32,118 bases of DNA, taken from a virus (taxonomy: Duplodnaviria; Caudoviricetes). The stretch is taken from positions 1 to 32,118 of IMG/VR virus record IMGVR_UViG_3300006919_000230; one strand, 5' to 3'. The notes beneath the pieces are model-generated. The model was not told the DNA's origin. It ran no database searches and worked only from the letters and a program-made list of their open reading frames with translations. Position 1 is the first letter of the stretch, and each line of letters opens with the position of its first letter. The position numbers were made by a program, and so were the translations under genes. Positions 2,650-27,236 of this stretch are shown here, in pieces.

Positions 2650-4198
2650 TCAACTCTTAGCCGATTATACGGCGCTGCCTGCCGCGCAACAGGCCGAGAT
2701 CGCAGAGGCGGTCACATCTCTCACATCTCCGATATGGGTTCCGACGCCGGGGCCGCAACGCGAAGCTTTTTACAGCAGGGCGGATCTTCTGCTGTTCGGG
2801 GGCAGCGCAGGCGGCGGTAAATCGGATCTTCTTTGCGGACTCGCCACCACGGCTCACAAGCAATCTCTCCTGATGCGGCGACGACACAAAGCGCTGCAGG
2901 GAATGATCGACCGCATTAAGGCGCTCGTCGGTTCCGACCGCGTTAGAGAGGGTGGCCAGCCCCGCGCCATCACAGAGGATCGCCGGGTCATCGAGTTCGG
3001 CGCGGCCCAGTACATCGGTGATGAGGAGGATTATCAGGGACGCCCACGCGACCTGCTGGGGTTCGATGAGGCCGCGCACTGGGCCGAGATCCAGGTTCAA
3101 AACCTAATGGGCTGGGTGCGGACAGAAGACCCGAACCAGAGATACAGGACGGTCCTCGCCTCAAACCCGCCGCTAGACAGCACGGGTGACTGGCTGATCA
3201 AATGGTTCCGGCCCTGGCTAGACATCACGCACCCTGACCCTGCCGAGAGCGGCGAACTGCGATGGTTTATATCAGACGAGAATGGCGACGACGTAGAAAT
3301 GCCGGGGCCGTCGCCCGTCGAACGAGACGGCAAGATCCTGCAGCCGAAGTCCAGGACGTTCATTCGATCAACACTGTCTGACAATCCATATTATGTTCGA
3401 ACGGGATACGCTGCCACGCTCGACGCGATGCCAGAACCGCTGCGATCAGCAATGCGGGATGGCAATTTTATGGCGGCCAGGGTGGATGATGAATGGCAGG
3501 TCATCCCAACAGAATGGATCACTGAGGCGCAGAAGCGGTGGACCCGTCAGCCGCCTGACTACGCTCCGATGTGCGCCCTTGGGGTCGATGTGGCCCAGGG
3601 CGGGCAAGACAACACGGTCATCGCGGCGCGGCATGACGGCTGGTTCGCCCCGCTGATTAAGCGCCCAGGGTCCGAGACACCAACAGGCAAAGAGGTGGCG
3701 GGCATGATCATCGCTAACCGCCGCGACAACGCCACGGTCGTCATCGACGTCGGCGGGGGATACGGCGGCGGGACCATTGTCCACCTGGAACAGAACAACA
3801 TCGACAGCGTGAGCTTCAATGGTGCGAATGCCGACACGGGCCGGACGAAAGACGGCAAGCTGAAATTTGCCAACCGCAGATCCTCCGCCATATGGAGGTT
3901 CCGAGAGGCTTTAGACCCGGATCAGCCTGGGGGCAGTAACATAGCCCTGCCAGATGATCCCATGTTGAGGGCCGATTTGACCGCCCCGCGCTACACTGTG
4001 ACGTCAAGGGGAATACAGGTCGAAAGCAAAGTAGACATTAAAAAACGGATCAAGCGGTCAACGGACGACGGTGATGCAGTTATCATGTCATGGTCTGCTG
4101 GCGCTAGATGGGCTACCAATGAGAAGGGCTGGCGTCAAAATAGGGGCAACGCTACGCCAAAAGTGATAAGACATAGGGCTCACCAGAAGAGGAATTAA
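2627..4198 (+). CDS. terL: Terminase large subunit
   Basis: PTPGPQ adenine-binding motif, Walker A GGSAGGGKS, Walker B LLGFDEA, coupling motif LASNPP, RNase H-like nuclease motifs LGVDVA and STDDGDA. Confidence 0.95.
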   Translation: MSETNLLDQLLADYTALPAAQQAEIAEAVTSLTSPIWVPTPGPQREAFYSRADLLLFGGSAGGGKSDLLCGLATTAHKQSLLMRRRHKALQGMIDRIKALVGSDRVREGGQPRAITEDRRVIEFGAAQYIGDEEDYQGRPRDLLGFDEAAHWAEIQVQNLMGWVRTEDPNQRYRTVLASNPPLDSTGDWLIKWFRPWLDITHPDPAESGELRWFISDENGDDVEMPGPSPVERDGKILQPKSRTFIRSTLSDNPYYVRTGYAATLDAMPEPLRSAMRDGNFMAARVDDEWQVIPTEWITEAQKRWTRQPPDYAPMCALGVDVAQGGQDNTVIAARHDGWFAPLIKRPGSETPTGKEVAGMIIANRRDNATVVIDVGGGYGGGTIVHLEQNNIDSVSFNGANADTGRTKDGKLKFANRRSSAIWRFREALDPDQPGGSNIALPDDPMLRADLTAPRYTVTSRGIQVESKVDIKKRIKRSTDDGDAVIMSWSAGARWATNEKGWRQNRGNATPKVIRHRAHQKRN

Positions 4199-4435: not shown

Positions 4436-6145
4436 ATGGATGAAATGACCGTCTCAAAGCAGCAGCTTACGCAGATAGTGGGCCGCTCAAACAAATTGTT
4501 TGGGGGGCGGTCATCGCTGGTCTCGTATTGGCAGGACGTGGCAGAACATTGCTATGTCGAACGCGCCCATTTCAAAGGAACCGGGACGCTCGATCCGTCC
4601 GACTTCTCCGGGCATTTAACCAGCGGCGCGGGCATTCAGGCGCGGTCAGAGTTGGCCAACGCTGTCAGCGGCATGCTGCGGCCTCCTGGGCGTGTCTGGT
4701 TCCGCCCCAAAATGCGCGGGATCGACAGTGAGGATCTGGATCAAAAGATTGTCCTGCAGCTGGAACGCATTCGGACGATTATGCAAAACGCGATGTATGA
4801 CCCTCTCAGCCGGTTCTCACGGGCGACCAAGCAGGCGGACAATGACTATGTTGCGTTCGGCAATGCGGTCATCGGCATCGAGATCAACAGAAAACGGTCA
4901 ACCCTGCTGTATCGGAATCACCATCTGCGGGACTGCGCCTGGGCCGAAGGGGGCGATGGCGAGGTTGACGAGATATATATCAAGATTGAGCGGACGTGCG
5001 CGCAGTTGAAGGGCGAGCGGCGGCTGTCTTTGGCGCCTAATGTGCAGAGCCTAAGCGACCGCGAGATGCATCAAAAGATTAAATGCCTTTGGGTGGTCGT
5101 CCCGGCAGAGCAGGTCTGGGGCTACAAGCACGAAGGCAAGTTTGCTAGCCTCTATATCGACGCCGAGAATGAACATCTTATGGCGGCGGAGATGCGCGAC
5201 TATTTCGGATATGTCGTCCCCCGATGGCAAACGGTATCCGACAGTCAGTATGGATATAGCCCGCCTACGGTGGCATCCCTGCCAGACGTCCGCAGCCTCC
5301 AGGCAATCATGCGCTCGCTAATGGAAGCTGGTGAGAAAGCCGCTGATCCTCCAATGGCCGCGCAACAGGACGTCGTTCGCGGCGACATTGACCTTACTAG
5401 CGGCGGGCTGACGTGGCTCGATGCTGAATATGATGAAAGCCTGGGCGCGGCTATCCGCCCGCTGGTCCAATCCGCGCGGGGGTTCCCGTTTGGCTGGCAG
5501 ATCATGGAAGACGTCCGCGCTCAAGTGGCCGCTGCGTTTATGCTGAACAAGCTGACGCTGCCGGACGCGGGGCATGGTGACATGACGGCTTATGAGGTTG
5601 GCCAGCGCATCCAGGAATATGTGAGGTCCGCAACGCCTCTGTTCGAGCCAATCCAGGCGGATTACAACGCCAAACTTTGCGACGAAACGTTCAATGTGCT
5701 GACTGCGGCGGAGGCTATGCCAGCGCCAGAAACCCTGCCTGAAGAGATGACGGATACTGACATTGATTTCTCGTTTGAAAACCCGTTCACGGCGGCGGCG
5801 TCTCAGGAGGTCGCGGTCCAGTATGATGCCGTCACCGGCCTGCTGAGTCGCCAGATGCAACTGGACCCGATGGCAGTGGCCGAGCTTGATACGAATATCA
5901 TGTTCCGTGCTGCCGTTCGCGGCCTTTCTGTCCCGGCTGACTGGCTGCGGAGTGAAGACGACGCAATGGAACAGCGGGCGGTCTTAGAGCAACAGGCGAA
6001 AGCGGCGCAGCAGATGGCCATGATGCGAGAGATGGCGGAGACAGCCCAGGCTGCAGGGGCGGGTATGTCGGCTATGGGTGATGGCGCTGCGGCTATGGGG
6101 CCGGAGGCTATGATGGGCGTGGAAGGGCAGCCAGATGCAGCCTGA
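4436..6145 (+). CDS. Portal (head-to-tail connector) protein, T7 gp8/BPP-1 type
   Basis: 569 aa with motifs YVVPRWQTVSDSQYGYSP, GEKAADPPM and MTAYEVGQRIQE; located between TerL and scaffold. Confidence 0.92.
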   Translation: MDEMTVSKQQLTQIVGRSNKLFGGRSSLVSYWQDVAEHCYVERAHFKGTGTLDPSDFSGHLTSGAGIQARSELANAVSGMLRPPGRVWFRPKMRGIDSEDLDQKIVLQLERIRTIMQNAMYDPLSRFSRATKQADNDYVAFGNAVIGIEINRKRSTLLYRNHHLRDCAWAEGGDGEVDEIYIKIERTCAQLKGERRLSLAPNVQSLSDREMHQKIKCLWVVVPAEQVWGYKHEGKFASLYIDAENEHLMAAEMRDYFGYVVPRWQTVSDSQYGYSPPTVASLPDVRSLQAIMRSLMEAGEKAADPPMAAQQDVVRGDIDLTSGGLTWLDAEYDESLGAAIRPLVQSARGFPFGWQIMEDVRAQVAAAFMLNKLTLPDAGHGDMTAYEVGQRIQEYVRSATPLFEPIQADYNAKLCDETFNVLTAAEAMPAPETLPEEMTDTDIDFSFENPFTAAASQEVAVQYDAVTGLLSRQMQLDPMAVAELDTNIMFRAAVRGLSVPADWLRSEDDAMEQRAVLEQQAKAAQQMAMMREMAETAQAAGAGMSAMGDGAAAMGPEAMMGVEGQPDAA

Positions 6146-7551: not shown

Positions 7552-8379
7552 ATGGTGACAGCAGCACAAATCCAATACCGGGATGAGTTCATCGCCGGTT
7601 TCGAGCAAGGCCAGAGCCTCCTTATGGACGCCTGTGTCAACGAAGCCCAGATCAAGGGCAATCAAGCAGTCTTTCTGGTGGCAGACAGCGGAAACGCAGA
7701 AGCCTAGACCTGTGGCGTAAATGGCCGCATCCCCTCTCGCAACGATAACCTCGCGCAGCCTACGGCAACGCTCGAAGAATGGCACGACAAGGCCACTCGC
7801 TCGGGTTTTGATCTGTTCGGCAGCCAAGGCGATGGTCGCAAGATCATGCAGGCCACGACGATGCAGGTCGTCAACCGGAAGGTGGATCAGATCGTCCTCG
7901 ACGCGATGTCGGCGGCGACCCAAACCACGACCACTGCGACCACGGCCAGCGTCAATCTGGTCATGCGCGCCCGGACGATCTTGGGCAATAACGCTGTTCC
8001 GACGAACGACGGAATGATGAGCATGGTCGTGACGCCAGCGTTCATGGCCTACATCATCCAAGCACCTGAGTTCTCCAGCGGTGACTATGTGGACGCGAAG
8101 CCGTTCGCCGGGTCTCCCAAGGTGTTCAAGTGGTTCGGCATCACGTTCATCGAGCATCCTAATCTTGCTGGCGCGGGTACGTCGTCTTCGACGTGTTATC
8201 TGTGGCACAAGAACTCTATGGGCTGCGCGGTTGATACCGCAGGCATGGATGTGGACAGCGGCTATAACGGTGAAGATCAGTACAACTGGGCGCGGGTTTC
8301 CACGTTCATGGGTTCTAAACTGATCCAGAACACCGGCATCGTCAAAGTCCTTCACAACGACGCAGCCATGTCCGCTTAA
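7552..8379 (+). CDS. Major capsid protein interrupted by an in-frame TAG at 7705-7707 (pseudogene, sequence error or readthrough)
   Basis: ATG 7552 with SD GGGAG reads MVTAAQIQYRDEFIAGFEQGQSLL...FLVADSGNAEA*TCGVNGRIPSR...EEWHD and continues in frame into ORF 7846..8379, 275 codons in total. Position follows the scaffold; capsid-like motifs KWFGITFIEHP and SKLIQNTGIV. Confidence 0.85.
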
Positions 8380-16500: not shown

Positions 16501-17718
16501 AAAGACCAGTTGGCGGCTGACCGCAATACTGCCCAAAGGCACGCGCAATCAGTGAAGCTTGCGGATGGCGAGTATTTCCATGCCACGACGCCAGATGCCA
16601 CAACGCCAGATGATTTAGAAAAAACAAAATATGGGAGGGTGATCTACAGGAACGCAAAGGGCGAAGCTGAGTCTGAGCTAAGTGTGACGGTTCAAAACCC
16701 TTCAACAGGCCTGTGGTACAATATACCGTCGCTCAATTGGGGTAAGATGACGTCGAGGGCAGAGACCGCTGCTCTTTATGGGATACCCAAGATGACGAAC
16801 GCCAACGATCAGGTGTTGGACATAGAGACGGGTGAGGTGATCCCAGGCTTCACGACGGAGTCCGAAGCAGTAGAAGCTGCGAAGGCGCGCAGTCGCGAAC
16901 TTAGCGGGGAACTTGGCGGCGGGCAGGGCGTTGACGATCTCGGTGGTGGCGCAGGCGACGATACTCTCGGTACGCGCACAGAAGTGCCTCCTGAGTTGGT
17001 GGATATGGCGGATGGCGAGTTCAGCCACGCTATAGACCCGTATCTCAAAAACAACCCACTAGCTAAATTGGCTATGGCGGATATTGAGAAGAACGGCGGC
17101 GTATCTAATACCCTATCGACGGGGCCGCTTGGGAAAAAGACGGGTCTTAGAGGTACTTATGATAAAGCAACCGGCAAGATAAAAATTGCGGCTGGCGACT
17201 TAGATGTAAATAGGAGTGACTTCCACAAATTCTACGCGGAGATGACCCCGGTCACTGTGGCGCATGAGTTGACTCATAAAGGGCTACACATGCTGCGGCA
17301 GGAAGGGCTTCTGAAGGGCTCGGCCATAGAGCGGGTGCTGGACGCAGAACGCAGCTTCAGCGATCACGTCCGGTTCATTAACTACGTTGACGTAATGAAT
17401 GCCTACAGTCAGGGACATGTAGATCCCACTAACGAAGACCACATAAGGTATCTGAGGACGTTCTACAGCAAGACTGAGATAGCAACAGGCCTTGAAGCGG
17501 CGGGTGTTAATGTCAACCGAAAGGGCGATGTCGCGCCTTCTATTTTAGGTAAGAGTAGATACGGCGAATCATCTGACCTGCAGAGGGCCATAAAAGAGTT
17601 AGGCACAGTCGTTAAAGCGGCGATGAAAAAGAAAGGTTTCTCCGATGCGGAGATAACGGCGCAGCTGGGCAAGGATAAGCCTTCGATCATATCGCGGATG
17701 AAGAGGTGGTTTAAGTAA
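13534..17718 (+). CDS. Internal virion protein with lytic transglycosylase domain and C-terminal HExxH module
   Basis: SLT motifs IMQIES (Glu at 14557-14559), AGGYFQW and LAHNQG at about 14500-14830; HELTH at 17263-17277; TAATG coupling to the next gene. Confidence 0.85.
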   Translation: MARIPSAANDIRRRLPRGGSGVVSTADASAGVGVQQLGAQVGAIGNYLEGIQKDKTQKIERAWASRAISDADAYWAEESIKRQKEAPREPTNYARTMADDYRKYAERVSANAPEDVRQLVQERLLSMGMSIHRSALTFENARFGATAKDDISDSLNTNSSMVLLDPAKYEDALANHARMIAATKGVTGDVAAAEAMQAGEEALSQARAVSLLENGAAPSDVIDMMRDGQIKLTAKGTAAVLALAERKQAVADDAAIRRAISDGDYDAADAMVSASDTLTPAGRQNHENKIRIGRGDAAYSRAIKQIGSPMLEVDAEVADAFLVASATYDLDPELFQTIMQIESAGGKSTGSPRDADGNVLSTAGGYFQWLDSTAKQYGVTKGDILSETVGLARFTQDNRKALTAALGRDPTNEELWLAHNQGAAGAGKLLNAREETLAKSAVSARALTNNGVSKDELATLTAKEFVERNNDLYERRRKEALSKSGGADPDAKYMSQAQINKLAKEKQDHDEAVAMQGRIADIASGKKPFESRSKIDVKALDIMQQGMWAGLPEDATLADKLEVSTGIAITVHRTPEAAVKLMRDTLELGANPDDMMAAIDAAHAMAQEDIGLPARMGKSYDLALTVNRLIGQGAVQREALELGRSLHTPANAERAAEVTEYLDGKNDDKVRNIDAMVEAVMEGVGLQPGTNAYMGARQSVEDSLRARVARSTGGEMEISRAVENAKENTIDLMKPLYGKTGVSGQGVMKYPPEKSAFALLGGRLPPEQVIAWMQEDLVAGAFPYVDIYAKIKQEDAKGNVIKVRDPTEKEIRERITAAMEGVSMRAVIDLKTDDVVGYHLFKDGQLVLNYRDRTGPDFDGTDGVAAPGIWKPEFNGSPYQKRQQAGADMANAATIADARKDRVAQAQATADAIAARMPMNEARLAEAVADDESFLRWISIPAGLEPGADRDAMIKRMVDAYTEKHGKAPPAFDVSDETPESKGVPIYDRKDQLAADRNTAQRHAQSVKLADGEYFHATTPDATTPDDLEKTKYGRVIYRNAKGEAESELSVTVQNPSTGLWYNIPSLNWGKMTSRAETAALYGIPKMTNANDQVLDIETGEVIPGFTTESEAVEAAKARSRELSGELGGGQGVDDLGGGAGDDTLGTRTEVPPELVDMADGEFSHAIDPYLKNNPLAKLAMADIEKNGGVSNTLSTGPLGKKTGLRGTYDKATGKIKIAAGDLDVNRSDFHKFYAEMTPVTVAHELTHKGLHMLRQEGLLKGSAIERVLDAERSFSDHVRFINYVDVMNAYSQGHVDPTNEDHIRYLRTFYSKTEIATGLEAAGVNVNRKGDVAPSILGKSRYGESSDLQRAIKELGTVVKAAMKKKGFSDAEITAQLGKDKPSIISRMKRWFK

Positions 17719-20700
17719 TGGCATTCTACTCAGCTAAGAACATCATCGAGGGCCAAGGTGGCCAAGCGCCCGCGCCGGTTCCAGAGGAGCAGTCTTTTTG
17801 GTCTCCCAAGGGATCGTTCTTTAGCGAAGTGCTGCCTGCTGCTTGGGCGACAGAGAACCCTGGCGGCGCTTTGGCGTCGAGCCTTCGCTATCGTGGCGGG
17901 GCATCGCAGATCGACCTTGAATATGACCCGTTTGAGGCCAGCCGCATTAGCGGGTACGAGCAATTCGCGGATAGCTTTGTTGGCGTAAACAACGATACAG
18001 AACTGACCGCCATGAAGGCGGAATTGGACCGCTACCGTAAGCATCAAAAGACTTTGGATGAGGGCGGCTGGATGGGGATGGCGGCCGTTTTGCTGAGTGC
18101 GGCGGCTTCTCCGACGATGCTGCTTCCTGGCGGGCAAATCTACCGCGGGCTCAAGGTCGGGCAAGCCGCATGGCGAACAGGCCTTAGCACGGCGGCATGG
18201 GGCGGCGCGGGCGCCGCAATCGACGAGGCTATCCTGTACGGCGCGCAGCCCGGTCGTTCTCAGTTAGAGGCGTTGATCGGGACTGCGTCGGGTGCGCTCC
18301 TGGGTGGGGCTCTGGGCGCTGGCATCGGCGCGTTTGCATCTCGGTCGGCTCGAAGCCAAGCCAGACTGGCGGCGCTCCCGAACATAGCCCGGACGCAAGA
18401 GCATGATGCCGCCGTCAAAGCATTCCAATCAGATTTAATGGAGCAAGCTTCCCGGTCGTCCTCTCTGCCTGAAGACCAGATCGAGGCGAGCATTGAACTT
18501 CTGACGCGCCAGTATGAGGCCGCTGTGGTCCGGTCTGGCATGCCGTTCGATGAGTTCCGCGCTGCTTATCCTCTGGAGATCCGGGACGGGCGCATAGTTT
18601 CGACTAGCACTGTGAAGTCCGTTGATGAAGGCGGGACGCCGGGGTTCGCGCCATCGTCTCGCGCCGTTGATGATCTGCAGGCCAAGGTCGATGACCTGGA
18701 AGCAAAGGCAAAGCCAGACCCTGACGGCGTGACGTACAATCAGGATGGCCGGGTTAAGACTGAGACGCCGGAGTTCCGGGCGTGGTTTGGCGAGGGCAAG
18801 TTACTCGACCCTGAGACTGGCGAGCCAAGCACGTTTTATCATGGGACGCCTCGCGACTTCGACGGCTTCGACACATCGGCGGCAACAGAACGGGATGGCG
18901 GGTTTTACGGCAAGGGCATTTACCTAACGGACGATGCGGACGAGGCTTTCGATTATTCGCTGAACGATCAGGGCGAAGACGTTGGCAGAGTTATTGAGGC
19001 GCATGTCAAAATGGAGAGGCCATTCGAGTTTGATTTGAGCGAGGAAGGCTGGCCTGCTACGCGCGCTCGATTGTCAGAGGCAGGCTTTAAGAGTGCAGAC
19101 CGGGCTGACAACCGGCACTCGTACAATCTTATCAGTTCAGAATCGGATCGCTTCTCTGCGTGGGCCAAAGAGAACGGTTTTGACGGTGTTGTGGTGCGAA
19201 CCGACAGGGGAATATCAGAGGTCGTCGCCTTCGACCCGACTCAGATCAAGTCCGTCAATAACCGAGGCACCTACGACCCCAGCGACCCGCGCATACTGTA
19301 TCAGGGGGCCACAGAGAGCCCCTTGTCGAAGGCACGGGAGATGGCGGCAACCAAGGTGTACCCAACAGGCCGAGAGTTCAAGGTCAGCCTTCAGGAAGCG
19401 GCGCTGGCGGCGCAGCGAGAGGAAGGCATTGACCTCTCCGATCTAACGCCAGAAAACATCCGACGCCTTGCTGATATGCTCAAAAGTGACGCCATTGAAG
19501 CACTGCAAGATAACGTCAACGCCATTGGCTGGTATGACCGGACTGTGACGGCGGCGCTGGAATCTGTTGCCGAGCTTTACCCAGAGGTGGCGACGAACCT
19601 TGTCAATAAGCTTCAATTCATATGGGCGTTGGCCGTCACGTCCAACGGACTAAAGGTTGACAAAAACTTCGAGATTGCGGGCAAAGCTTACGAGGCGCTA
19701 CAGACCACGGGGTCTTTCCCTACAAATGCGGGGATTGGCGATGCCGCGTCTGCTATCAATTCGGGCCTCGGCATGTACCACAAGATGCTTGCGCGGTTTG
19801 ATGGTGATCACGCCAAGTTAGTCGATTTCATGAACAAGAAAACCACGGTTCGGGAGATCGAGGCTGAGTACGATGTTAAAATTAGCGGCGAAGGCAAGGA
19901 TACACTGGTTCGTGGGGCGTCTATTCTAGGGCCGAAGATAGGTAACGGGTTCTTTTCAAACCTATACGGAAATTTTGATGAGTTAACGATGGACCGCTGG
20001 CTTATGCGGACGGTCGGGCGCTGGCGCGGTACACTCATCAAGCGCAATGCGGCGATGGAGGCGAAGAAGCGGGCGCAAATCACCGCACTTTTTTCAGTGG
20101 CCTCGCCCGATGAATTACGCCAAATGCGCGCCTTATACAAAGGCACTGGTGCGCGTATCGCGACACGCATGACAAAGGCCGAGATTGATGTCTTGGCGGC
20201 GGTTACGAAAAAAGCTTCAATGGACCCTGCGTGGCGGGAGCGGCTGAATGCTGTTGATGGCGGCGCTCTACTGAGGAAGGCGGCTAATGGCCTTTATGGA
20301 TACCTCGACGGGCAGGTAGAGGCACCGTCTGGACCCAGGGAGCGGACATTCATTAGGGCGGTCTTTACGAAAGCCCTCGGTGAACTCAACGACAGCCCAG
20401 AGATGCGTCAATTAAGCAACGCAAAACTTACCATGAGCGACCTTCAGGCCTTATTGTGGTATCCAGAAAAGCGACTATATGATAGTGCTAAGGGCAACGC
20501 AGAGGGAGCGCGAGGTTATGCGGACGACGACGCACCAGACTACGCCAACGCCGCCAGAAAATACGTCAACAATCGACTGGGACGAAGCGGAACGCCTGGA
20601 CGACCTGGAGAACCCGACACGCTCGGAGGAACAGGACGAGTTCGAGATGGAAAACTGGCTGAAGGCCAGGAAGGCCCGCTAACTCTTAATCAAGGAGAAG

Positions 20701-23700
20701 TCGATGGCGTATTCGGACCCGAACGCGGACCTGGACGAGGAGGACGATCCCCAGGGCCGGGGGGAGGCGCGGCGGAACTATATGCTGCTGCGCCGCCGAC
20801 GCGGGCCGAGCCCCTCCCAAGCGCGACCAAAATCGGAGGCAAGCCCTTCGGCCCCATCATCGGCCTCGTCGATGCCGCAGAGCGATACGCCGCCAAACAC
20901 GGCATCGAACTCCGGCGACAAGGCGAATTTGTAAGCATAGACGAGGCTCGCTCACGGCGGATAGCTGATGCTTATGACGCCATGCCGCATGCTCCGGGCG
21001 ACCCTCGGGTGCAGGCGTCATACCGGGCGATGATCAATCAGGTCGATGATCAATACCAACAACTGATCGACGACGGCTACGAGTTCTACCTGATGGACCC
21101 GGCCAGCGACCCGTACAACGGCAACCCTTGGGAAGCCATGCGGGATCTTCGCGACAACAAGCGGATGGCGGTGTTCCCGACCGGCGACGGGTTCGGCACG
21201 GATGCCGACTTCGACCCAGCTGACAACATGCTGATGGAATTTTCAGGCCGCGAGATGCGCGATGCCAAGACCGGCGACATGGTCGAGGTGCGCGCGAACG
21301 ATCTATTCCGCGCCGTCCACGACGCTTTCGGCCACGGGCTTGAGGGAAGCGGGTTTCGCGCGAGGGGCGAGGAAAACGCTTGGCAGGCTCACAGCCGTTT
21401 ATTCACGGGTGACGCTGTAGGCGCGATGACGTCAGAGACGCGAGGCCAGAATAGTTGGCTTAACTACGGCCCGCATGCGGAGGCCAACAAGACAGCCAAG
21501 GTCGAGGACACCGTCTTCGCCAATCAGAAGATGGGCCTTATGCCAGAGTGGACGTGGGCCGAGGGCCGGTCTCCTGACGCAGCCCTGCCGCTCGCGCCTA
21601 GTGATGGCCCCAACATCCTCTATCAGAGTGCGGCTGACGCCGCTCCTGACATGGAGAACGGCGGCGCAGAAATAGACGGTCGCCTGTTCGTCGCTCACAA
21701 TCTCTCTATCGGAAAACTACTTCACGCTGACAAGATGGGCGGGCTGCCAATGCCGTCGCTCGCTGTGACGCGGGCTGATGTAGGGTTCGATGACTTTGGA
21801 GAGGTCAGCCTTATCGGTGCGCCTGATCTTGTGGACCCGAAGGCCAAGGGCGTCGGGATCTATGATGCTGACGTTTACACACCGCGCTATCCGTCCATAG
21901 ATTACACAACGAACCGCAAGGCTCTGGACGCGCTTGAAGCCGATATCACCGCTGCTGTTGAGCGGGCTGGCCTCGATCCGAAGCAGGTCGCAATGCGTGT
22001 TGATCTGGAGAGCGACGGCCTGAAGTGGTTTAGCTCGGATCACGCTGTCCGCATCCTGTATTTGGATGAGCGGGGCATTGAGGTGCCTTTGCGTGAGCCA
22101 GGGCGGGCAGACACAACAGAACTCCACAACATTGTTGACGGGCGGCGGGATGATTTTGACGAGTGGCTAGATGGCCGCACGGAAGGCCTAATCGACAAAG
22201 AGCGCATCTTTAAGGGGTTCACCAATGCTAGGAACCGACGCTATGCCCCGCATACGATAGATAATGTGCTGAAGGATATGAAGTCGCGTCTGAAGGAAGG
22301 CGAGGGCTTTAACTATGGCGCCGGCACTATCCGGTCCAAGCATGCCAAGAAGTTCAAAAACCTAAAGGACGTCATGGCTGACCGGGATCGGATTGTCACC
22401 GAGGCCGAGATTAAGGACATGAAGGACGAGTTCCAGCAGCGCATCATGGACATGGCAGAGTCAGCGCGGGACTATTACAAGTTCGACAAAAAGAGCTTCA
22501 GCTATATTGATGACTTTTCTGACGTCATGGCGGAGATGGCATCCAAGGGGCCACGGGCTCTTGATGAGATATTCGATGACCTACCGGCTGAGATAAAGAC
22601 GGACATCGTGCAGTATCTCAATGATCTCCGGCTGGCTCCGACGCAATACTTTGAGGCCAAACTAAACCGGATCGTCACTCTGGATGAGTTCGATGCTGCT
22701 GTCGTCCCGCACGACCTTCCCGCCAAGGCCAGGGCTGTGCTTGAACGCGCTGGCCTGCGGATTGAAGAGTATGCCAGCGATGCCGAGCGGCGTGTCGATG
22801 TGACGAAGCATGAGCATCTGCTGTTTCAGTCTAAAGTTGGCGATCCTGCTGTCGGCGCACAGAAGAAAAACGCGCCACGCGCACAAATCCAGTTGCCAAG
22901 CGTCGATGACCCTCGGGCAATCATAACCATGTTCAATGGGGCTGACGCATCGTCGTTAGCGCATGAGGGGGCGCATTTCTTCCTGAACCTATATGAAGGG
23001 CTCGCGGCGCGAACCGGCGCTGCTGATGATGTCGTGGCTGATGTCGCGGCTATCCGCAAATGGCTTGGGGCGACTGATGGCGAGGCGCTAACTCGCGCAC
23101 AGCATGAGCAATGGGCAAGCGGGTTTGAGCAGTACATGCGGACGGGCAAGCCACCGAAGCCTGAACTGCAAGGCCTCTTTAATAAGTTCCGGGGCTGGCT
23201 GGTAGAAATTTATGAAGACGCCAAAGCCTTGGGCGTCAAGATATCTCCTGAGATTGAAGCGGCGATGGGCCGGATGATGGTCGTCGAGCGCAAGGCGGCA
23301 ATGGATGCAGAGCAGGCGCGTTTCACTGGCGAGGTGGCGTCAGCAGAGCGGTCAGACGTTGAAGACGGGAACGCCGTGCCGGGTGCTGAACGGCCTCCTG
23401 CAAATGATAATGGGGGCTCGGGTTCAGCCTTAGACCAATCGCGGCCAAACTTGTCTGATGCTGAGATGGATAATCTCGTTCGCCAGGGACACTCGATGTC
23501 TGTGATCGCCCGTCAGATAGGCGACCCGATTGCGTGGCTGGAAACATCTCCGTCAGCACTATCGCAGCGCTTGGCTCATTCTATGGCTGAGACGTCGGGC
23601 ATGCGTGAAAGTCATGTACGGGGCGAGGTCGATGCGGATCTCCCCGTCGAGACGCTGATCCGACCGTGGCGGGCTCGGGCTATCGCTGGCAAGCGCGTCA

Positions 23701-26700
23701 TGGAATTGGAGTTCATGAAACATCGCAAGATGTCTGTGGACGCCTTCGCCGGGGATGCGGTGCGGGAAGGTCGCATTGCTTTAAGGATGGTCCTTGACGC
23801 TCGCGGTGCGCCTGATGGGTTCATGACGAAGACCGACTTCAATCGCGCTGTGGGGCAGGCTGTACGGCACGGTGTTGAGACGGCAGAGAATGCAGAGATC
23901 AAGGCGGCGGCTGAGTTCTACCGGGACCACGTCTATCTCCCTGGGCTCAAGGCTGCCATAGAGGCGAAGCTGCTGCCTGATCATATCCTGACAGAATCCG
24001 ACGCGATGAAATATCTGAACCGTGTCTATGACACTGCAAAGATTGTGGACAAGCGGCCTCGGTTTGTTGAGATGGCGGCTGATTATTTGGAGGAAGATCA
24101 AGCCACAAAGCGCGCTCTGATTGACCGGGCTATGGTGCTTGATGTTGAGCAGTCAGCGCTTGATGTGACGGGGAAAACCATCTCGCAAAAGATGGTCGCC
24201 GCACAGAAGGCGCAGGGCATACTGCAGGCGCGTCTGACTGAAGCCCGGATGTCCGACAATCGCAACACTGCGCGGTCAGCATTCCTGGCTGAGAAGCTTT
24301 CAGATATTGACGCAGACATCGCACGAATGAAGGCCGAGTTGGCCGCTATGCGGGGGGACGCCAGGGCGGATAAGGCCGAGGTCGATGCGCTCAATAGAGA
24401 AATAGGCGCTCTTGAAGCTCTAAAGAAAAAGGCTTCTGCTGGGGACGCTGAAGCGTTGGGCATGGATACATCCGAGGCGATGGATGTAATTCGATCTGAT
24501 GATCAGCTTTTCGGCGCGTTCAAGGTTTTGTCTGGCAGGAAACAGGCACCTAAGCTGCGGACCTTGCTTTCTGACCTGCGGGCAGGCGGCGGGCTAACGG
24601 ATGTCGGCGGCGAACTGGCTGCCCTTGGCATCACGTCTCGGACGCATCCGGGGCTGATTAACAAAAATGGCCTGTCTCTGGAGGATAGCGCTGGCGAGTT
24701 CCTGATGGAGCGTGGCTATCATGGCCTAGATCCGCAACAGGTCGGGGGCATACAGGACAAGCTGGTCGAGATGATCCGCCGCGAACTAGAGGGGAATCCG
24801 ACTATCTCCCCAGGCAACCGCCAAGAGGATCTGCTCGTTGTCGAGTACGTTCAGGCTCTGGAGGAAGCTGCTGGGCAGGCGGGCATTGATCTGTCAGATC
24901 CTGTGGCGTTCCATCGCTTTATCGCGAACCTCGACAGTGACCGGGCCGGTCAGGGGCCGACACTTGAAGACCTGGATATTGAAATCGAGGCAATGCAGAA
25001 GGCGGGGGCTGATCCCGTCGAGCCTGTAGAAGGCGGCGCTGACAATCTGCGCACTCGGCAGTCTGCTTTGTCCGCAATGCGCGCCACCATCAAGAAGGCC
25101 GTTGAAGCCAAGAAGCGCGCTGTGGCGAACCGGCGCCCTGCTGCGGCACGTTCTGCTGAACGCGGCATGGAAGCTCGCGCTGCTTCGCGCCGGACAGATA
25201 CGCTAACCGCCCGCCTCGACGCTGTTGAGGAACGCATGGGCGACCTGGATGCCGAGCAAAGGGCGCATGATGATGCCGTCGCGGGGCTAAGAGCGTCCAA
25301 GGAGGCCATTGTCGGCAGCTGGCAGGGTAACACTGCGGAGTCAGCCCAGGCCGCGCTGAAGGCGCGTTATGCGGCAGAGGATGCTCGTTCAGAGAAGATC
25401 GCGCGTGGTGAGAGCAGGCGGTATGCCGATGTAGGTGATGCCCCGCGCTTAAGGTCTGCCGACGATGCCGTTGATCAAGCCATCAAGCGCATGATCGCGT
25501 CACGCGAAACGAAGGATATGAGCCGCGCTGAACTAAACGATATCGCGTCAGAGATCGCCAACCGGATCGTCGGGACGCCGGACGGACGCTTGCCCTATGA
25601 TCGGTTCACGAAAGAAGACGGGGACGAGGCATCGCGTGTTTCCGGGTACGGGGCAAGCGACAAGGCGGGGCAGCGTGGGTCAACGATGGCTCGCGTCTGG
25701 GCTATCCCGGATGACTTCGTCAGCAGGAGCGGCATTCGCTACGATGAGTTTCTGGAGCAAGATATTGAACTAACCTCGACCATCTACACGAACACGATGG
25801 GGCCGGACGTCGAGTTCGCCAAGCGATTTGGGGTGCCGGGTGAAAGCGGTCGATGGATGGAGAAAGAGATTAAGGCTGTTGAGGCTGACTATGACGCCAA
25901 GATGGGCGCTCCTGGCCTGTCGGTGCAGGACATGAACCGTCTGCAAACCCGCAAAGAAACCGACATAAAATCCGTCGCGGGCATCCGGGACAGGCTCCGA
26001 GGCGTTTACGCGCTGCCTGCCGAGCCGCAGGGGTGGGCCTATCGGGCGCAGAATGTGGCACTCAGCTGGAACTATATGCGGCTGCTGGGCGGCATGACAC
26101 TTTCTGCTATCCCGGACATGTTTCACATCGTCATGCTCAATGGGTTCAAGCGCTCTGGCCTAGTCCCAGCCCTTCAGGCGGTCGTGTCGAAAGAGGCGCG
26201 GGGCATGATGCTGGAGGAACTGCAGGCGTTCAATGTTGCAGACGACATTATGTCATCAAGCCGGGTGCAGACTGTCGCTGACTTTAACCTTCAACACCAT
26301 CGGCTGACTAAAGGCGAGCGCGCGGTCCAAGGCGGGACGGCGGTGTTCACCAAGCTTTCACTGATGAACTACTGGAACCAATACGCGAAAAACATGGCGG
26401 GTATCGTTACATGGTCCCGCATGCTCCCGGCTCTTCGCCAGATGGCGGCGGGGACAGCAAGCCCAAAGGACGCGGCGAAGTTGGCTCAGATGGGCATTGA
26501 TGCAGGATGGGCGCGCCGGATGGTCGGCATGCTTGACCGGCATGGTGAGGATGTCGGCGGGACCACTATGCCGAACGGGGAACGGTGGCAGGACGCAGAC
26601 GCGGCGAATAGGTTGCGCGGGGCTCTGGCTGCCGAGGTAGACAGAATGATTGTCACTCCGGGGCAGGAAAGGCCTTTGTGGATGTCCCGCAACGGCTGGC

Positions 26701-27236
26701 GGTTGATCGGTCAGTTCCGGTCGTTTGCGGTCGCGGCGCAGTCCCGCGTGACCATGCAGGGCGTCCAGCAGAGAGACGCGGCAACGCTGATCGGGCTCAC
26801 GGGCATGATAGCCGCTGGTTCCCTCTCGTATTCTCTAAAGCAGCAGGTCGCGGGGCGTGATGTGAAGACGGACGCCTACACATTGATCAAGGAGGGGATT
26901 GATAGATCCGGTGCCTTCGGCTGGGCTTTCGACGCGCACAACACGCTAGAGAAGGCAACTCGCGGAACTATTGGGCTGTCCGCTCTTGATGACGGCCCTG
27001 GCATGTCGCGCTATGCTAGTCGGAACGCTGTCGGGTCTATCTTGGGGCCAACAATGGGCTTGCTGACTGATATGTTTTCCGCCTCCGGTGCCGCGTTCAG
27101 TGGTGACTTTAGCCGAGGGGATATCACTGCATTCCGCAAACTTCTTCCTTTGCAGAATCTGTTCTACATACGGACGCAGTTAAATAAGTTACAAGAAGGC
27201 GTGGGCGACGAGCTTGGCCTAGCCAAAACGGGATAA
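17718..27236 (+). CDS. Giant internal virion protein / large polyvalent protein (ADP-ribosyltransferase, HhH-like, metal-binding and zincin modules)
   Basis: 3172-aa uninterrupted ORF in the T7 gp16 position. Gly/Ala hydrophobic N-terminus; FRAWFG..FYHGT..GKGIYLT..GFDGV ART-PolyVal signature; HEGAH at 22962-22976; helical C-terminus with QFRSF and GSILGPT. Confidence 0.9.
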   Translation: MAFYSAKNIIEGQGGQAPAPVPEEQSFWSPKGSFFSEVLPAAWATENPGGALASSLRYRGGASQIDLEYDPFEASRISGYEQFADSFVGVNNDTELTAMKAELDRYRKHQKTLDEGGWMGMAAVLLSAAASPTMLLPGGQIYRGLKVGQAAWRTGLSTAAWGGAGAAIDEAILYGAQPGRSQLEALIGTASGALLGGALGAGIGAFASRSARSQARLAALPNIARTQEHDAAVKAFQSDLMEQASRSSSLPEDQIEASIELLTRQYEAAVVRSGMPFDEFRAAYPLEIRDGRIVSTSTVKSVDEGGTPGFAPSSRAVDDLQAKVDDLEAKAKPDPDGVTYNQDGRVKTETPEFRAWFGEGKLLDPETGEPSTFYHGTPRDFDGFDTSAATERDGGFYGKGIYLTDDADEAFDYSLNDQGEDVGRVIEAHVKMERPFEFDLSEEGWPATRARLSEAGFKSADRADNRHSYNLISSESDRFSAWAKENGFDGVVVRTDRGISEVVAFDPTQIKSVNNRGTYDPSDPRILYQGATESPLSKAREMAATKVYPTGREFKVSLQEAALAAQREEGIDLSDLTPENIRRLADMLKSDAIEALQDNVNAIGWYDRTVTAALESVAELYPEVATNLVNKLQFIWALAVTSNGLKVDKNFEIAGKAYEALQTTGSFPTNAGIGDAASAINSGLGMYHKMLARFDGDHAKLVDFMNKKTTVREIEAEYDVKISGEGKDTLVRGASILGPKIGNGFFSNLYGNFDELTMDRWLMRTVGRWRGTLIKRNAAMEAKKRAQITALFSVASPDELRQMRALYKGTGARIATRMTKAEIDVLAAVTKKASMDPAWRERLNAVDGGALLRKAANGLYGYLDGQVEAPSGPRERTFIRAVFTKALGELNDSPEMRQLSNAKLTMSDLQALLWYPEKRLYDSAKGNAEGARGYADDDAPDYANAARKYVNNRLGRSGTPGRPGEPDTLGGTGRVRDGKLAEGQEGPLTLNQGEVDGVFGPERGPGRGGRSPGPGGGAAELYAAAPPTRAEPLPSATKIGGKPFGPIIGLVDAAERYAAKHGIELRRQGEFVSIDEARSRRIADAYDAMPHAPGDPRVQASYRAMINQVDDQYQQLIDDGYEFYLMDPASDPYNGNPWEAMRDLRDNKRMAVFPTGDGFGTDADFDPADNMLMEFSGREMRDAKTGDMVEVRANDLFRAVHDAFGHGLEGSGFRARGEENAWQAHSRLFTGDAVGAMTSETRGQNSWLNYGPHAEANKTAKVEDTVFANQKMGLMPEWTWAEGRSPDAALPLAPSDGPNILYQSAADAAPDMENGGAEIDGRLFVAHNLSIGKLLHADKMGGLPMPSLAVTRADVGFDDFGEVSLIGAPDLVDPKAKGVGIYDADVYTPRYPSIDYTTNRKALDALEADITAAVERAGLDPKQVAMRVDLESDGLKWFSSDHAVRILYLDERGIEVPLREPGRADTTELHNIVDGRRDDFDEWLDGRTEGLIDKERIFKGFTNARNRRYAPHTIDNVLKDMKSRLKEGEGFNYGAGTIRSKHAKKFKNLKDVMADRDRIVTEAEIKDMKDEFQQRIMDMAESARDYYKFDKKSFSYIDDFSDVMAEMASKGPRALDEIFDDLPAEIKTDIVQYLNDLRLAPTQYFEAKLNRIVTLDEFDAAVVPHDLPAKARAVLERAGLRIEEYASDAERRVDVTKHEHLLFQSKVGDPAVGAQKKNAPRAQIQLPSVDDPRAIITMFNGADASSLAHEGAHFFLNLYEGLAARTGAADDVVADVAAIRKWLGATDGEALTRAQHEQWASGFEQYMRTGKPPKPELQGLFNKFRGWLVEIYEDAKALGVKISPEIEAAMGRMMVVERKAAMDAEQARFTGEVASAERSDVEDGNAVPGAERPPANDNGGSGSALDQSRPNLSDAEMDNLVRQGHSMSVIARQIGDPIAWLETSPSALSQRLAHSMAETSGMRESHVRGEVDADLPVETLIRPWRARAIAGKRVMELEFMKHRKMSVDAFAGDAVREGRIALRMVLDARGAPDGFMTKTDFNRAVGQAVRHGVETAENAEIKAAAEFYRDHVYLPGLKAAIEAKLLPDHILTESDAMKYLNRVYDTAKIVDKRPRFVEMAADYLEEDQATKRALIDRAMVLDVEQSALDVTGKTISQKMVAAQKAQGILQARLTEARMSDNRNTARSAFLAEKLSDIDADIARMKAELAAMRGDARADKAEVDALNREIGALEALKKKASAGDAEALGMDTSEAMDVIRSDDQLFGAFKVLSGRKQAPKLRTLLSDLRAGGGLTDVGGELAALGITSRTHPGLINKNGLSLEDSAGEFLMERGYHGLDPQQVGGIQDKLVEMIRRELEGNPTISPGNRQEDLLVVEYVQALEEAAGQAGIDLSDPVAFHRFIANLDSDRAGQGPTLEDLDIEIEAMQKAGADPVEPVEGGADNLRTRQSALSAMRATIKKAVEAKKRAVANRRPAAARSAERGMEARAASRRTDTLTARLDAVEERMGDLDAEQRAHDDAVAGLRASKEAIVGSWQGNTAESAQAALKARYAAEDARSEKIARGESRRYADVGDAPRLRSADDAVDQAIKRMIASRETKDMSRAELNDIASEIANRIVGTPDGRLPYDRFTKEDGDEASRVSGYGASDKAGQRGSTMARVWAIPDDFVSRSGIRYDEFLEQDIELTSTIYTNTMGPDVEFAKRFGVPGESGRWMEKEIKAVEADYDAKMGAPGLSVQDMNRLQTRKETDIKSVAGIRDRLRGVYALPAEPQGWAYRAQNVALSWNYMRLLGGMTLSAIPDMFHIVMLNGFKRSGLVPALQAVVSKEARGMMLEELQAFNVADDIMSSSRVQTVADFNLQHHRLTKGERAVQGGTAVFTKLSLMNYWNQYAKNMAGIVTWSRMLPALRQMAAGTASPKDAAKLAQMGIDAGWARRMVGMLDRHGEDVGGTTMPNGERWQDADAANRLRGALAAEVDRMIVTPGQERPLWMSRNGWRLIGQFRSFAVAAQSRVTMQGVQQRDAATLIGLTGMIAAGSLSYSLKQQVAGRDVKTDAYTLIKEGIDRSGAFGWAFDAHNTLEKATRGTIGLSALDDGPGMSRYASRNAVGSILGPTMGLLTDMFSASGAAFSGDFSRGDITAFRKLLPLQNLFYIRTQLNKLQEGVGDELGLAKTG
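20518..20682 (+). CDS. Candidate overprinted small acidic protein (+1 frame inside the giant gene)
   Basis: ATG 20518 with GGGAG at 20504-20508 (alternative ATG 20479); 54 aa containing DWDEAERLDDLENPTRSEEQDEFEMENWLKARKAR; the host frame here is a G/R/P-rich linker. Confidence 0.45.
   Translation: MRTTTHQTTPTPPENTSTIDWDEAERLDDLENPTRSEEQDEFEMENWLKARKAR
20704..20934 (+). CDS. Candidate overprinted small protein (+1 frame inside the giant gene)
   Basis: AAGGAG at 20692-20697, 6 nt before ATG 20704; begins MAYSDPNADLDEEDDPQGRGEARRNYMLLRRRRG; starts 21 nt after the stop of the previous nested ORF. Confidence 0.5.
   Translation: MAYSDPNADLDEEDDPQGRGEARRNYMLLRRRRGPSPSQARPKSEASPSAPSSASSMPQSDTPPNTASNSGDKANL

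Follow-up and report, generated by a model that had tools for sequence, protein, structure and literature searches.

Three described phage systems come close to the locus reported here. In the lambda Rz/Rz1 two-component spanins a gene can lie embedded within its partner, on the same strand and in the +1 frame; the portion of the spanin survey cited here distinguishes embedded, overlapped and separated architectures, states that such genes are often missed by annotation, and discusses how losing a stop codon could lead to embedding (Kongari et al. 2018, PMC6139136). Phage polyvalent proteins are giant, multi-enzyme, late virion proteins, with domains that include ART-PolyVal and PBECR5 (Iyer et al. 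2017, PMC5512222). In the MuF polymorphic toxins a phage head protein carries an enzyme-like domain, after which comes a short open reading frame (ORF) that varies with the domain (Jamet et al. 2017, PMC5576092). Neither embedding in the +1 frame, known from spanins, nor immunity ORFs, known from MuF toxins, is in itself new. The subject of this work is a stretch of 32,118 nucleotides (nt) from a virus of the Caudoviricetes (IMG/VR record IMGVR_UViG_3300006919_000230; the whole stretch is hereafter the window), in which a giant gene for a polyvalent internal virion protein of 3172 amino acids (aa) contains two small ORFs, ORF1 and ORF2, in tandem in its +1 frame. The pair lies between two of the protein's modules, modules 2 and 3, neither of which has a Pfam match.

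The giant protein has the hallmarks of the polyvalent class: it holds several unrelated catalytic domains (PF18760, PF18814 and the predicted fold of module 2), and its gene is located 3' of those for portal, capsid and tail, that is, among late virion genes. Modules 2 and 3, however, match none of the polyvalent Pfam families, and the cited portion of the polyvalent account mentions no nested partner genes (in its main text the words 'overlap' and 'linker' occur 0 times; PMC5512222). In the literature searched, which was mostly open-access and came without supplements, no account of partner genes nested within polyvalent proteins was found. Spanins are membrane lysis proteins, whereas the peptides here look soluble and lie in the linkers of a polyprotein, several per gene; moreover, in the portion of the survey cited no spanin family mixes embedded with other architectures (PMC6139136), whereas a sister family of the present peptides, described below, mixes overlapped and embedded states. 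In MuF proteins, as far as the cited sections describe them, the toxin sits at the C-terminus and the small ORF comes after its stop codon (PMC5576092), whereas here the main frame reads through into further modules; the giant protein shows no match to the MuF domain, and the toxicity of its modules is putative.

ORF1 and ORF2 are almost certainly real coding genes. Each is an open alternative frame with start, Shine-Dalgarno (SD) sequence and stop, lying wholly within another gene of the same strand. The signals given in a preliminary description of the locus are all in place: ORF1 ends in TAA at 20680-20682, ORF2 in TAA at 20932-20934, the AAGGAG and ATG of ORF2 stand where Table 1 lists them, and the main-frame motif LTLNQ spans the gap between the two ORFs. 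Equally, ORF1 has the 13 aspartate or glutamate residues within 28 residues reported for it; its net charge is -7 (-11 over the core), and that of ORF2 is near neutral (-1).

To score the two frames, a codon model was trained on the window's own long genes and expressed as the log-odds of the +1 frame minus the main frame. The ORF1 core scores +0.98 and the first 34 codons of ORF2 score +0.74, compared to a maximum of 0.01 among the 2963 other 34-codon segments of the giant gene; in six other long genes of the window the +1 score is at most 0.10. Synonymous resampling of the main frame gave an expectation of 1.25 acidic residues in the +1 frame of ORF1, where 13 are found, and of 1.15 in that of ORF2, where 8 are found; none of the 20,000 resamplings matched either count. 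The ATG at 20704 is the sole +1-frame ATG with a 5-nt SD in the giant gene, and 181 of 20,000 resamplings yield one. Openness of the frame alone is weak evidence, as ORF1 stays open in 35% of resamplings and the ORF2 start in 100%. The coding signal is also bounded: the first 17 codons of ORF1 still score as main frame, and the last 42 codons of ORF2 (20806-20931) show no signal (-0.01), so this tail is probably run-on. The claim that the +1 frame reads as protein thus stands for the ORF1 core and the first 34 codons of ORF2, but not for the full extent assigned to ORF2. The folding of the mRNA around both nested starts is unremarkable and Rfam gave no match. A DUF2934 match to ORF1 (E=0.002, under the cutoff) was taken as chance, and a 117-aa alternative ORF at 19093-19446 scored as non-coding by the codon model.

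Related loci reveal selection on the +1 peptides. Substitutions were counted in disjoint pairs of related loci and expressed per 1000 opportunities. Those that are silent in the main frame and change the +1 frame occur in the ORF1 block at a rate of 3.7 where the module-2 core has 130.7, and in the ORF2 block at 11.4 where the module-3 core has 140.3: a deficit of 12- to 35-fold, and the suppression of main-frame synonymous variation that had been proposed as a check. The reverse class, silent in the +1 frame and changing the main frame, is raised (29.1 versus 5.5 for the ORF1 block and 65.6 versus 1.7 for the ORF2 block). Purifying selection on the +1 peptides is therefore seen at the level of the families, to which the window's own ORF2 is weakly tied. 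Since the +1 frame has normal codon usage and is under the stronger constraint, it is the glycine-, arginine- and proline-rich (G/R/P) linker of the main frame that looks like the secondary frame; the earlier view of small genes overprinted inside an effector gene probably has the order backwards.

The start signals are likewise kept. An SD of at least 4 nt with a start occurs in 21 of 22 ORF1-family loci and in 30 of 48 ORF2-family loci, compared to a null expectation of 7.7 in each case and to 2 of 48 (3.0 expected) in a control region; because the loci are kin, these counts are not independent events. SDs of at least 5 nt are enriched in the ORF2 family only (24 of 48, null 2.7; ORF1 family 3 of 22, null 2.9).

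The two genes are probably partners of the modules that flank them, ORF1 with module 2 and ORF2-type genes with module 3. Together with the window, 80 module-2 loci gave a set of 36 non-redundant loci, 17 of which have [IV]D[WY]D in the +1 frame just 3' of the module. In the region that follows, entropy across these 17 loci peaks at main-frame codon position 1 and is about zero at position 3, and identity 3' of the IDWD anchor is 0.56 in the +1 frame and 0.48 in the main frame (null 0.20). A hidden Markov model (HMM) built from 16 relatives, with the window left out, ranked the window's ORF1 first among its 912 ORFs (E=0.0011); the N-terminus, which the main frame forces, contributes some of this score. 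The reverse search, starting from the peptide family, found 46 loci, and in 44 the C-terminal motif of module 2 lies upstream; one locus is truncated and one, L338, is an exception. L338 is an apparent recombinant, with the ORF1 core behind a module other than module 2 and no visible ATG where the +1 frame is open. The ORF1 family is kept ahead of four different families of downstream module, and more distant relatives of module 2 carry an acidic +1 peptide of another kind in the corresponding position.

Beyond these loci the ORF1 family comprises 136 protein clusters that have been called as separate genes and are known from protein records alone, including some from Pelagovum and Donghicola/Marivivens, with WP_368343672.1 as the Pelagovum and OBR38656.1 as the Donghicola record; two of the clusters come from cultured marine bacteria. 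A search with the single ORF1 sequence found no protein homologue, and the family was found neither in 401 genomes sampled from one class nor among annotated phages. By eye, the C-terminal half of ORF1 (20620-20682; acidic, FE...W, basic end) resembles the end of the first nested ORF of locus L152 (about 3720-3790), which likewise sits between modules 2 and 3.

For ORF2-type genes the linkage was tested from the side of module 3, using 80 loci, 77 of which allowed anchoring; removal of redundancy left 54. Over the 25 codons upstream of the module the +1 frame is open in 48 of the 54 (null 36.6, maximum 43), and identity 5' of the module is 0.44 in the +1 frame and 0.33 in the main frame (null 0.17), with the consensus ETEEDGxRAEALRR; conservation of the +1 ORF in homologous modules, a further check proposed at the outset, is seen in these loci. 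A strict ORF2-type motif is present in 59 of the 77 loci, behind 28 different upstream families, and this pattern-based count is a lower bound, as clear variants were missed. Inspection by eye of 44 genome loci found the motif in 11 of the 13 whose module 3 is 55-69% identical (one is truncated and one lacks it). The window's ORF2 is likely a distant member of this DPN..ETEEDG..EALRRL family: it has the same position, aligns on DPN..EED..R.EA.R, and its mean pairwise score to the family beats 298 of 300 shuffles. A search with the single ORF2 sequence returned only two identical contigs and a metagenome scan with the junction one identical contig; a second module-3 scan gave almost the same loci and no closer kin of this ORF2 variant.

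The pair belongs to a more general layer of nested genes. Among 120 non-redundant giant-gene loci, 93 segments (in 71 loci) shift to the +1 frame and 5 to the +2 frame, and these are genes that routine annotation misses. As the preliminary description anticipated, gene callers pass over them, the two genes of the window included, and none of the nested genes in Limnohabitans phage DC33 (PQ492659.1) or in MW202722 is annotated; DC33 carries one such +1 ORF downstream of its homologue of module 2. The nested peptides are themselves modular, the first part going with the upstream module and the last part with the module downstream. In the window and in L152, L101 and L277 each part is an ORF of its own; in L033, L024 and L089 the parts are fused. 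One nested +1 peptide, ending in PGLT.E.A.EM...GF, precedes a particular downstream module, presumably GNAT-like from its motif (L146:3594-3812, L164:3597-3809, L088:2042-2341, L415 about 4600-4810); it is often fused to the module-2 partner and is present in the cultured phage DC33 too.

A sister family of peptides provides information on how nesting may arise. It was found at 59 loci (34 distinct), and a DUF7178 module, whose Atlas features score 0.96 against module 2, lies directly upstream in 33 of the 34. In 4 of the 34 the small gene is overlapped, the module's gene ending inside it; in 15 it is embedded, with the main-frame stop no more than 50 codons further on; in 14 the main frame reads further; and one is truncated. 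With 44 of 46 loci for ORF1, 28 upstream families for the ORF2 type and 33 of 34 here, specific small genes are linked to specific enzyme-like modules. The overlapped, embedded and nested states, all within one family, suggest that the small gene came first and that the giant frame grew across it by read-through. The partner gene would then predate the polyprotein linker, the direction being read from the series of states and not from a tree. Under this scheme a cassette of module and small partner would have been chained into the polyprotein upon loss of the module's stop codon, turning the -1 frame of the partner gene into a G/R/P linker.

Predicted structures give some indication of what the two modules are. 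The model of module 2 is of moderate quality (predicted local distance difference test, pLDDT, 71; predicted template modelling score, pTM, 0.49). In VIA-align it aligns over its full length with members of the HhH-GPD DNA glycosylase superfamily and with gp46 of phage PaMx11: MagIII at Z 6.1 (root-mean-square deviation 4.8, 174 residues aligned), gp46 at Z 5.5, and NTHL1, MutY and OGG at Z 4.4-4.8; its Atlas features score 0.96 to clusters of DUF7178 (PF23802). Module 2 differs from these enzymes in that Z reaches only 4.4-6.1 and no direct Pfam match exists (none below E 0.06); Foldseek also returned no match. We predict on this basis an HhH-GPD glycosylase-like fold. Module 3 is modelled with confidence (pLDDT 92, pTM 0.90) and has an invariant HDxFGH motif in place of the zincin HExxH. 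VIA-align places it with abylysin, YbeY and ArdC at Z 2.1-2.3, Foldseek found no match and the PDB gave no sequence match below E 0.007, so that module 3 is at most weakly zincin-like.

The nested genes, kept by selection and each tied to one module, may well encode cognate inhibitors of modules 2 and 3, a reading whose prospects we judge to be about even. The inhibitors would keep both enzyme-like modules inactive during synthesis of the giant protein. ORF1 and ORF2 would be translated by internal initiation on the late mRNA of the giant gene, and because this mRNA is shared the peptides would appear whenever the giant protein does. Acidic ORF1 would bind the DNA-binding groove of the HhH-GPD-like module, and the peptides would not accompany the polyprotein through packaging and injection.

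Ugi and Ocr are acidic inhibitors that mimic DNA. ORF1 likewise encodes a small phage peptide that is acidic and studded with aromatic residues, and its neighbour is an enzyme predicted to act on DNA, the likeness being one of net charge and description only; no sequence match to such inhibitors came up, none having been looked for, and ORF2, being near neutral, is unlike them. Ocr is named in the cited portion of the polyvalent account (PMC5512222). The MuF layout of toxin followed by small ORF, as given in the cited sections (PMC5576092), was counted in favor of cognate inhibitors. We advance with more reserve a wider proposal, possible though short of probable: polyvalent virion proteins would be chains of toxin-immunity cassettes whose immunity genes are read through in another frame, the 'disordered G/R linkers' would be a hidden layer of cognate antidotes that fuse and split as modules shuffle, and ORF1 would inhibit an injected glycosylase-like enzyme by mimicking DNA. 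How a phage makes much of a multi-enzyme injected protein unharmed is a point that the cited portion of the polyvalent account does not address (PMC5512222). Module-specific nested partners would be a concrete, testable answer to such self-harm in the production host; they would also give a rule for spotting dangerous uncharacterised modules, and a supply of short candidate inhibitors.

Several observations weigh against cognate inhibition, or against its generality. The preliminary description held that each toxic module travels with its own small gene; a small gene does go with module 2 and with module 3, both only putatively toxic, but the ART-PolyVal and PBECR5 modules of the same giant gene have no nested gene and no +1-shifted segment beside them. 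By eye, the ORF2-type motif is absent from all 31 loci whose module-3 homolog is at most 49% identical (0/31), Octadecabacter phage BD1 lacks ORF2, and in three Bixzunaviruses a DUF7178-like gene abuts a module-3 gene with nothing between, so that 'each' does not hold. L338 retains the ORF1 core behind a different module. The family HMM misses the window's ORF2 (E>10, or 0.52 without bias correction), the ORF1-block rates rest on few counts (16 isolated changes in 11 pairs), and the modules of the sister family are not significantly related to module 2 by hhalign (E=0.16). The fold calls are modest for module 2 (Z 6.1) and weak for module 3 (Z 2.3), and the activity and toxicity of both are putative. 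Finally, some nested genes belong to the widespread basic family phrog_2423, which is without a known inhibitor role; microprotein genes of this family lie nested within giant genes, in the +1 frame, at L026:704-1255, L041:926-1258 and L062:989-1249.

Module types 2 and 3 recur together: a module-2-like or DUF7178-like module lies directly upstream in 34 of 75 module-3 loci, DUF7178-like and module-3 genes are adjacent in Gordonia phage Skog (gp165 and gp166) and in the three Bixzunaviruses, and a single protein annotated as structural, gp205 of Rhodococcus phage E3, joins the two domains by fusion. This would suit small genes that are real partners but not antidotes, namely accessory subunits, chaperones or regulators of a coupled unit of HhH-like module and module 3, which may act on the phage's own DNA, and all of the linkage and selection data fit such partners equally well. 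However, the actinophage pairs mostly have no small gene between them, which makes an obligatory subunit unlikely, and each module clade has a peptide unrelated to the others, the pattern we would expect of cognate inhibitors; non-antidote partners are, on balance, somewhat unlikely. As a separate observation, the recurring pair (L419-L421, L423) suggests a single pathway. Skog also has an unannotated 47-codon ORF with a GGAGG SD between gp165 and gp166 (L418:2093-2236); alike by eye, it was rejected as an ORF2 homologue because the likeness falls short of significance (163 of 2000 and 179 of 200 shuffles).

Genes that overlap are in part inherited together automatically, and the nested genes could accordingly be passengers, that is, independent small phage genes trapped at module edges, co-inherited by linkage and with targets elsewhere, for example a host defense protein. 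The phrog_2423 genes nested in L026, L041 and L062, the ORF1 core without module 2 in L338, and the 136 clusters of ORF1-family proteins called as separate genes (from protein records alone) are all consistent with this. If passengers were the rule, however, peptide searches should find them off-module, and they almost never do (on-module in 44 of 46 and 33 of 34); furthermore, the sister gene adjoins its module even where the module's gene has already stopped. We regard passengers as unlikely.

If ribosomes shifted to the +1 frame close to the end of module 2, the product would be a shortened polyprotein with ORF1 as its acidic tail, and separate initiation would be dispensed with. The +1 frame is indeed open from 20437, within module 2, and the SD of ORF1 is weak, those of at least 5 nt being no more frequent in its family than expected (3 of 22, null 2.9). 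Against this, openness upstream is expected from the main frame (null stop rate 0.001-0.005 per codon), 21 of 22 ORF1-family loci have an SD of at least 4 nt with a start, many module-2 relatives have a +1 stop between module and peptide, and ORF2, which sits behind a stop with its own strong SD, is left unexplained; a frameshift is improbable. That there are no proteins at all, only a by-product of the G/R-rich linker or a conserved non-coding signal, accounts for the ORF2 tail and the ORF1 N-terminus, which are main-frame by-products, but is very improbable given that variation gathers at the +1 wobble position, that +1 shifts outnumber +2 shifts by 93 to 5 in the 120 loci, and that Rfam has no match.

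Table 1. Positions of the nested genes, their signals and the surrounding modules in the window.
Feature	Position	Strand	Evidence
ORF1, 54-aa acidic microprotein, +1 frame, core IDWDxxExLDxxE	20518..20682	+	codon usage, family HMM, selection
ORF1 SD-like GGAG, 9 nt 5' of ATG	20505..20508	+	sequence
ORF2, 76 codons, +1 frame, acidic then Arg-rich	20704..20934	+	coding signal only at about 20704-20805
ORF2 SD AAGGAG, 6 nt 5' of ATG	20692..20697	+	sequence
LTLNQ main-frame inter-module motif across gap between ORF1 and ORF2	20679..20693	+	one of five similar motifs
TATGAT, -10-like element, at Tyr-Asp codons ending module 2	20478..20483	+	motif
Giant polyvalent internal virion (ejection) protein gene, 3172 codons, host of the nested genes	17718..27236	+	ORF and domain matches
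Module 1, ART-PolyVal ADP-ribosyltransferase, no nested +1 gene adjoining	18813..19262	+	PF18760 E=5e-24, aa 366-515; no codon shift
Module 2, predicted HhH-GPD glycosylase-like fold, DUF7178-like; borders approximate	19341..20567	+	structure model, Atlas features
Module 3, uncharacterised HDxFGH domain, at most weakly zincin-like; borders approximate	20820..21587	+	structure model
Module 4, PBECR5 predicted RNase, no nested +1 gene adjoining	21687..22091	+	PF18814 E=2e-23, aa 1324-1458; no codon shift
Five ...Q motifs	18732, 19293, 20682, 21615, 22818	+	motif likeness

The TATGAT element is a possible -10 of an internal promoter. It is present in 15 of 22 related IDWD-clade loci, which are kin, compared to 4.9 expected, and in 3 of 30 other loci (2.8 expected); its -35 is poor and it is absent from the output of the promoter scan. 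The five similar (I/L/T)(L/Y)(Y/N/F)Q motifs between modules of the giant protein (aa 339, 526, 989, 1300 and 1701) are possible processing or recombination sites.

By profile matches the window is a podovirus-like phage contig with genes for terminase, portal, capsid, tail and internal virion proteins, and the C-terminus of the giant protein matches phrog_342, an internal virion protein. The gene for the major capsid protein (7552-8379) has one in-frame stop (7705-7707) after 51 codons, the ORF listing showing only a 177-aa piece, which we read as an assembly error or a defective phage.

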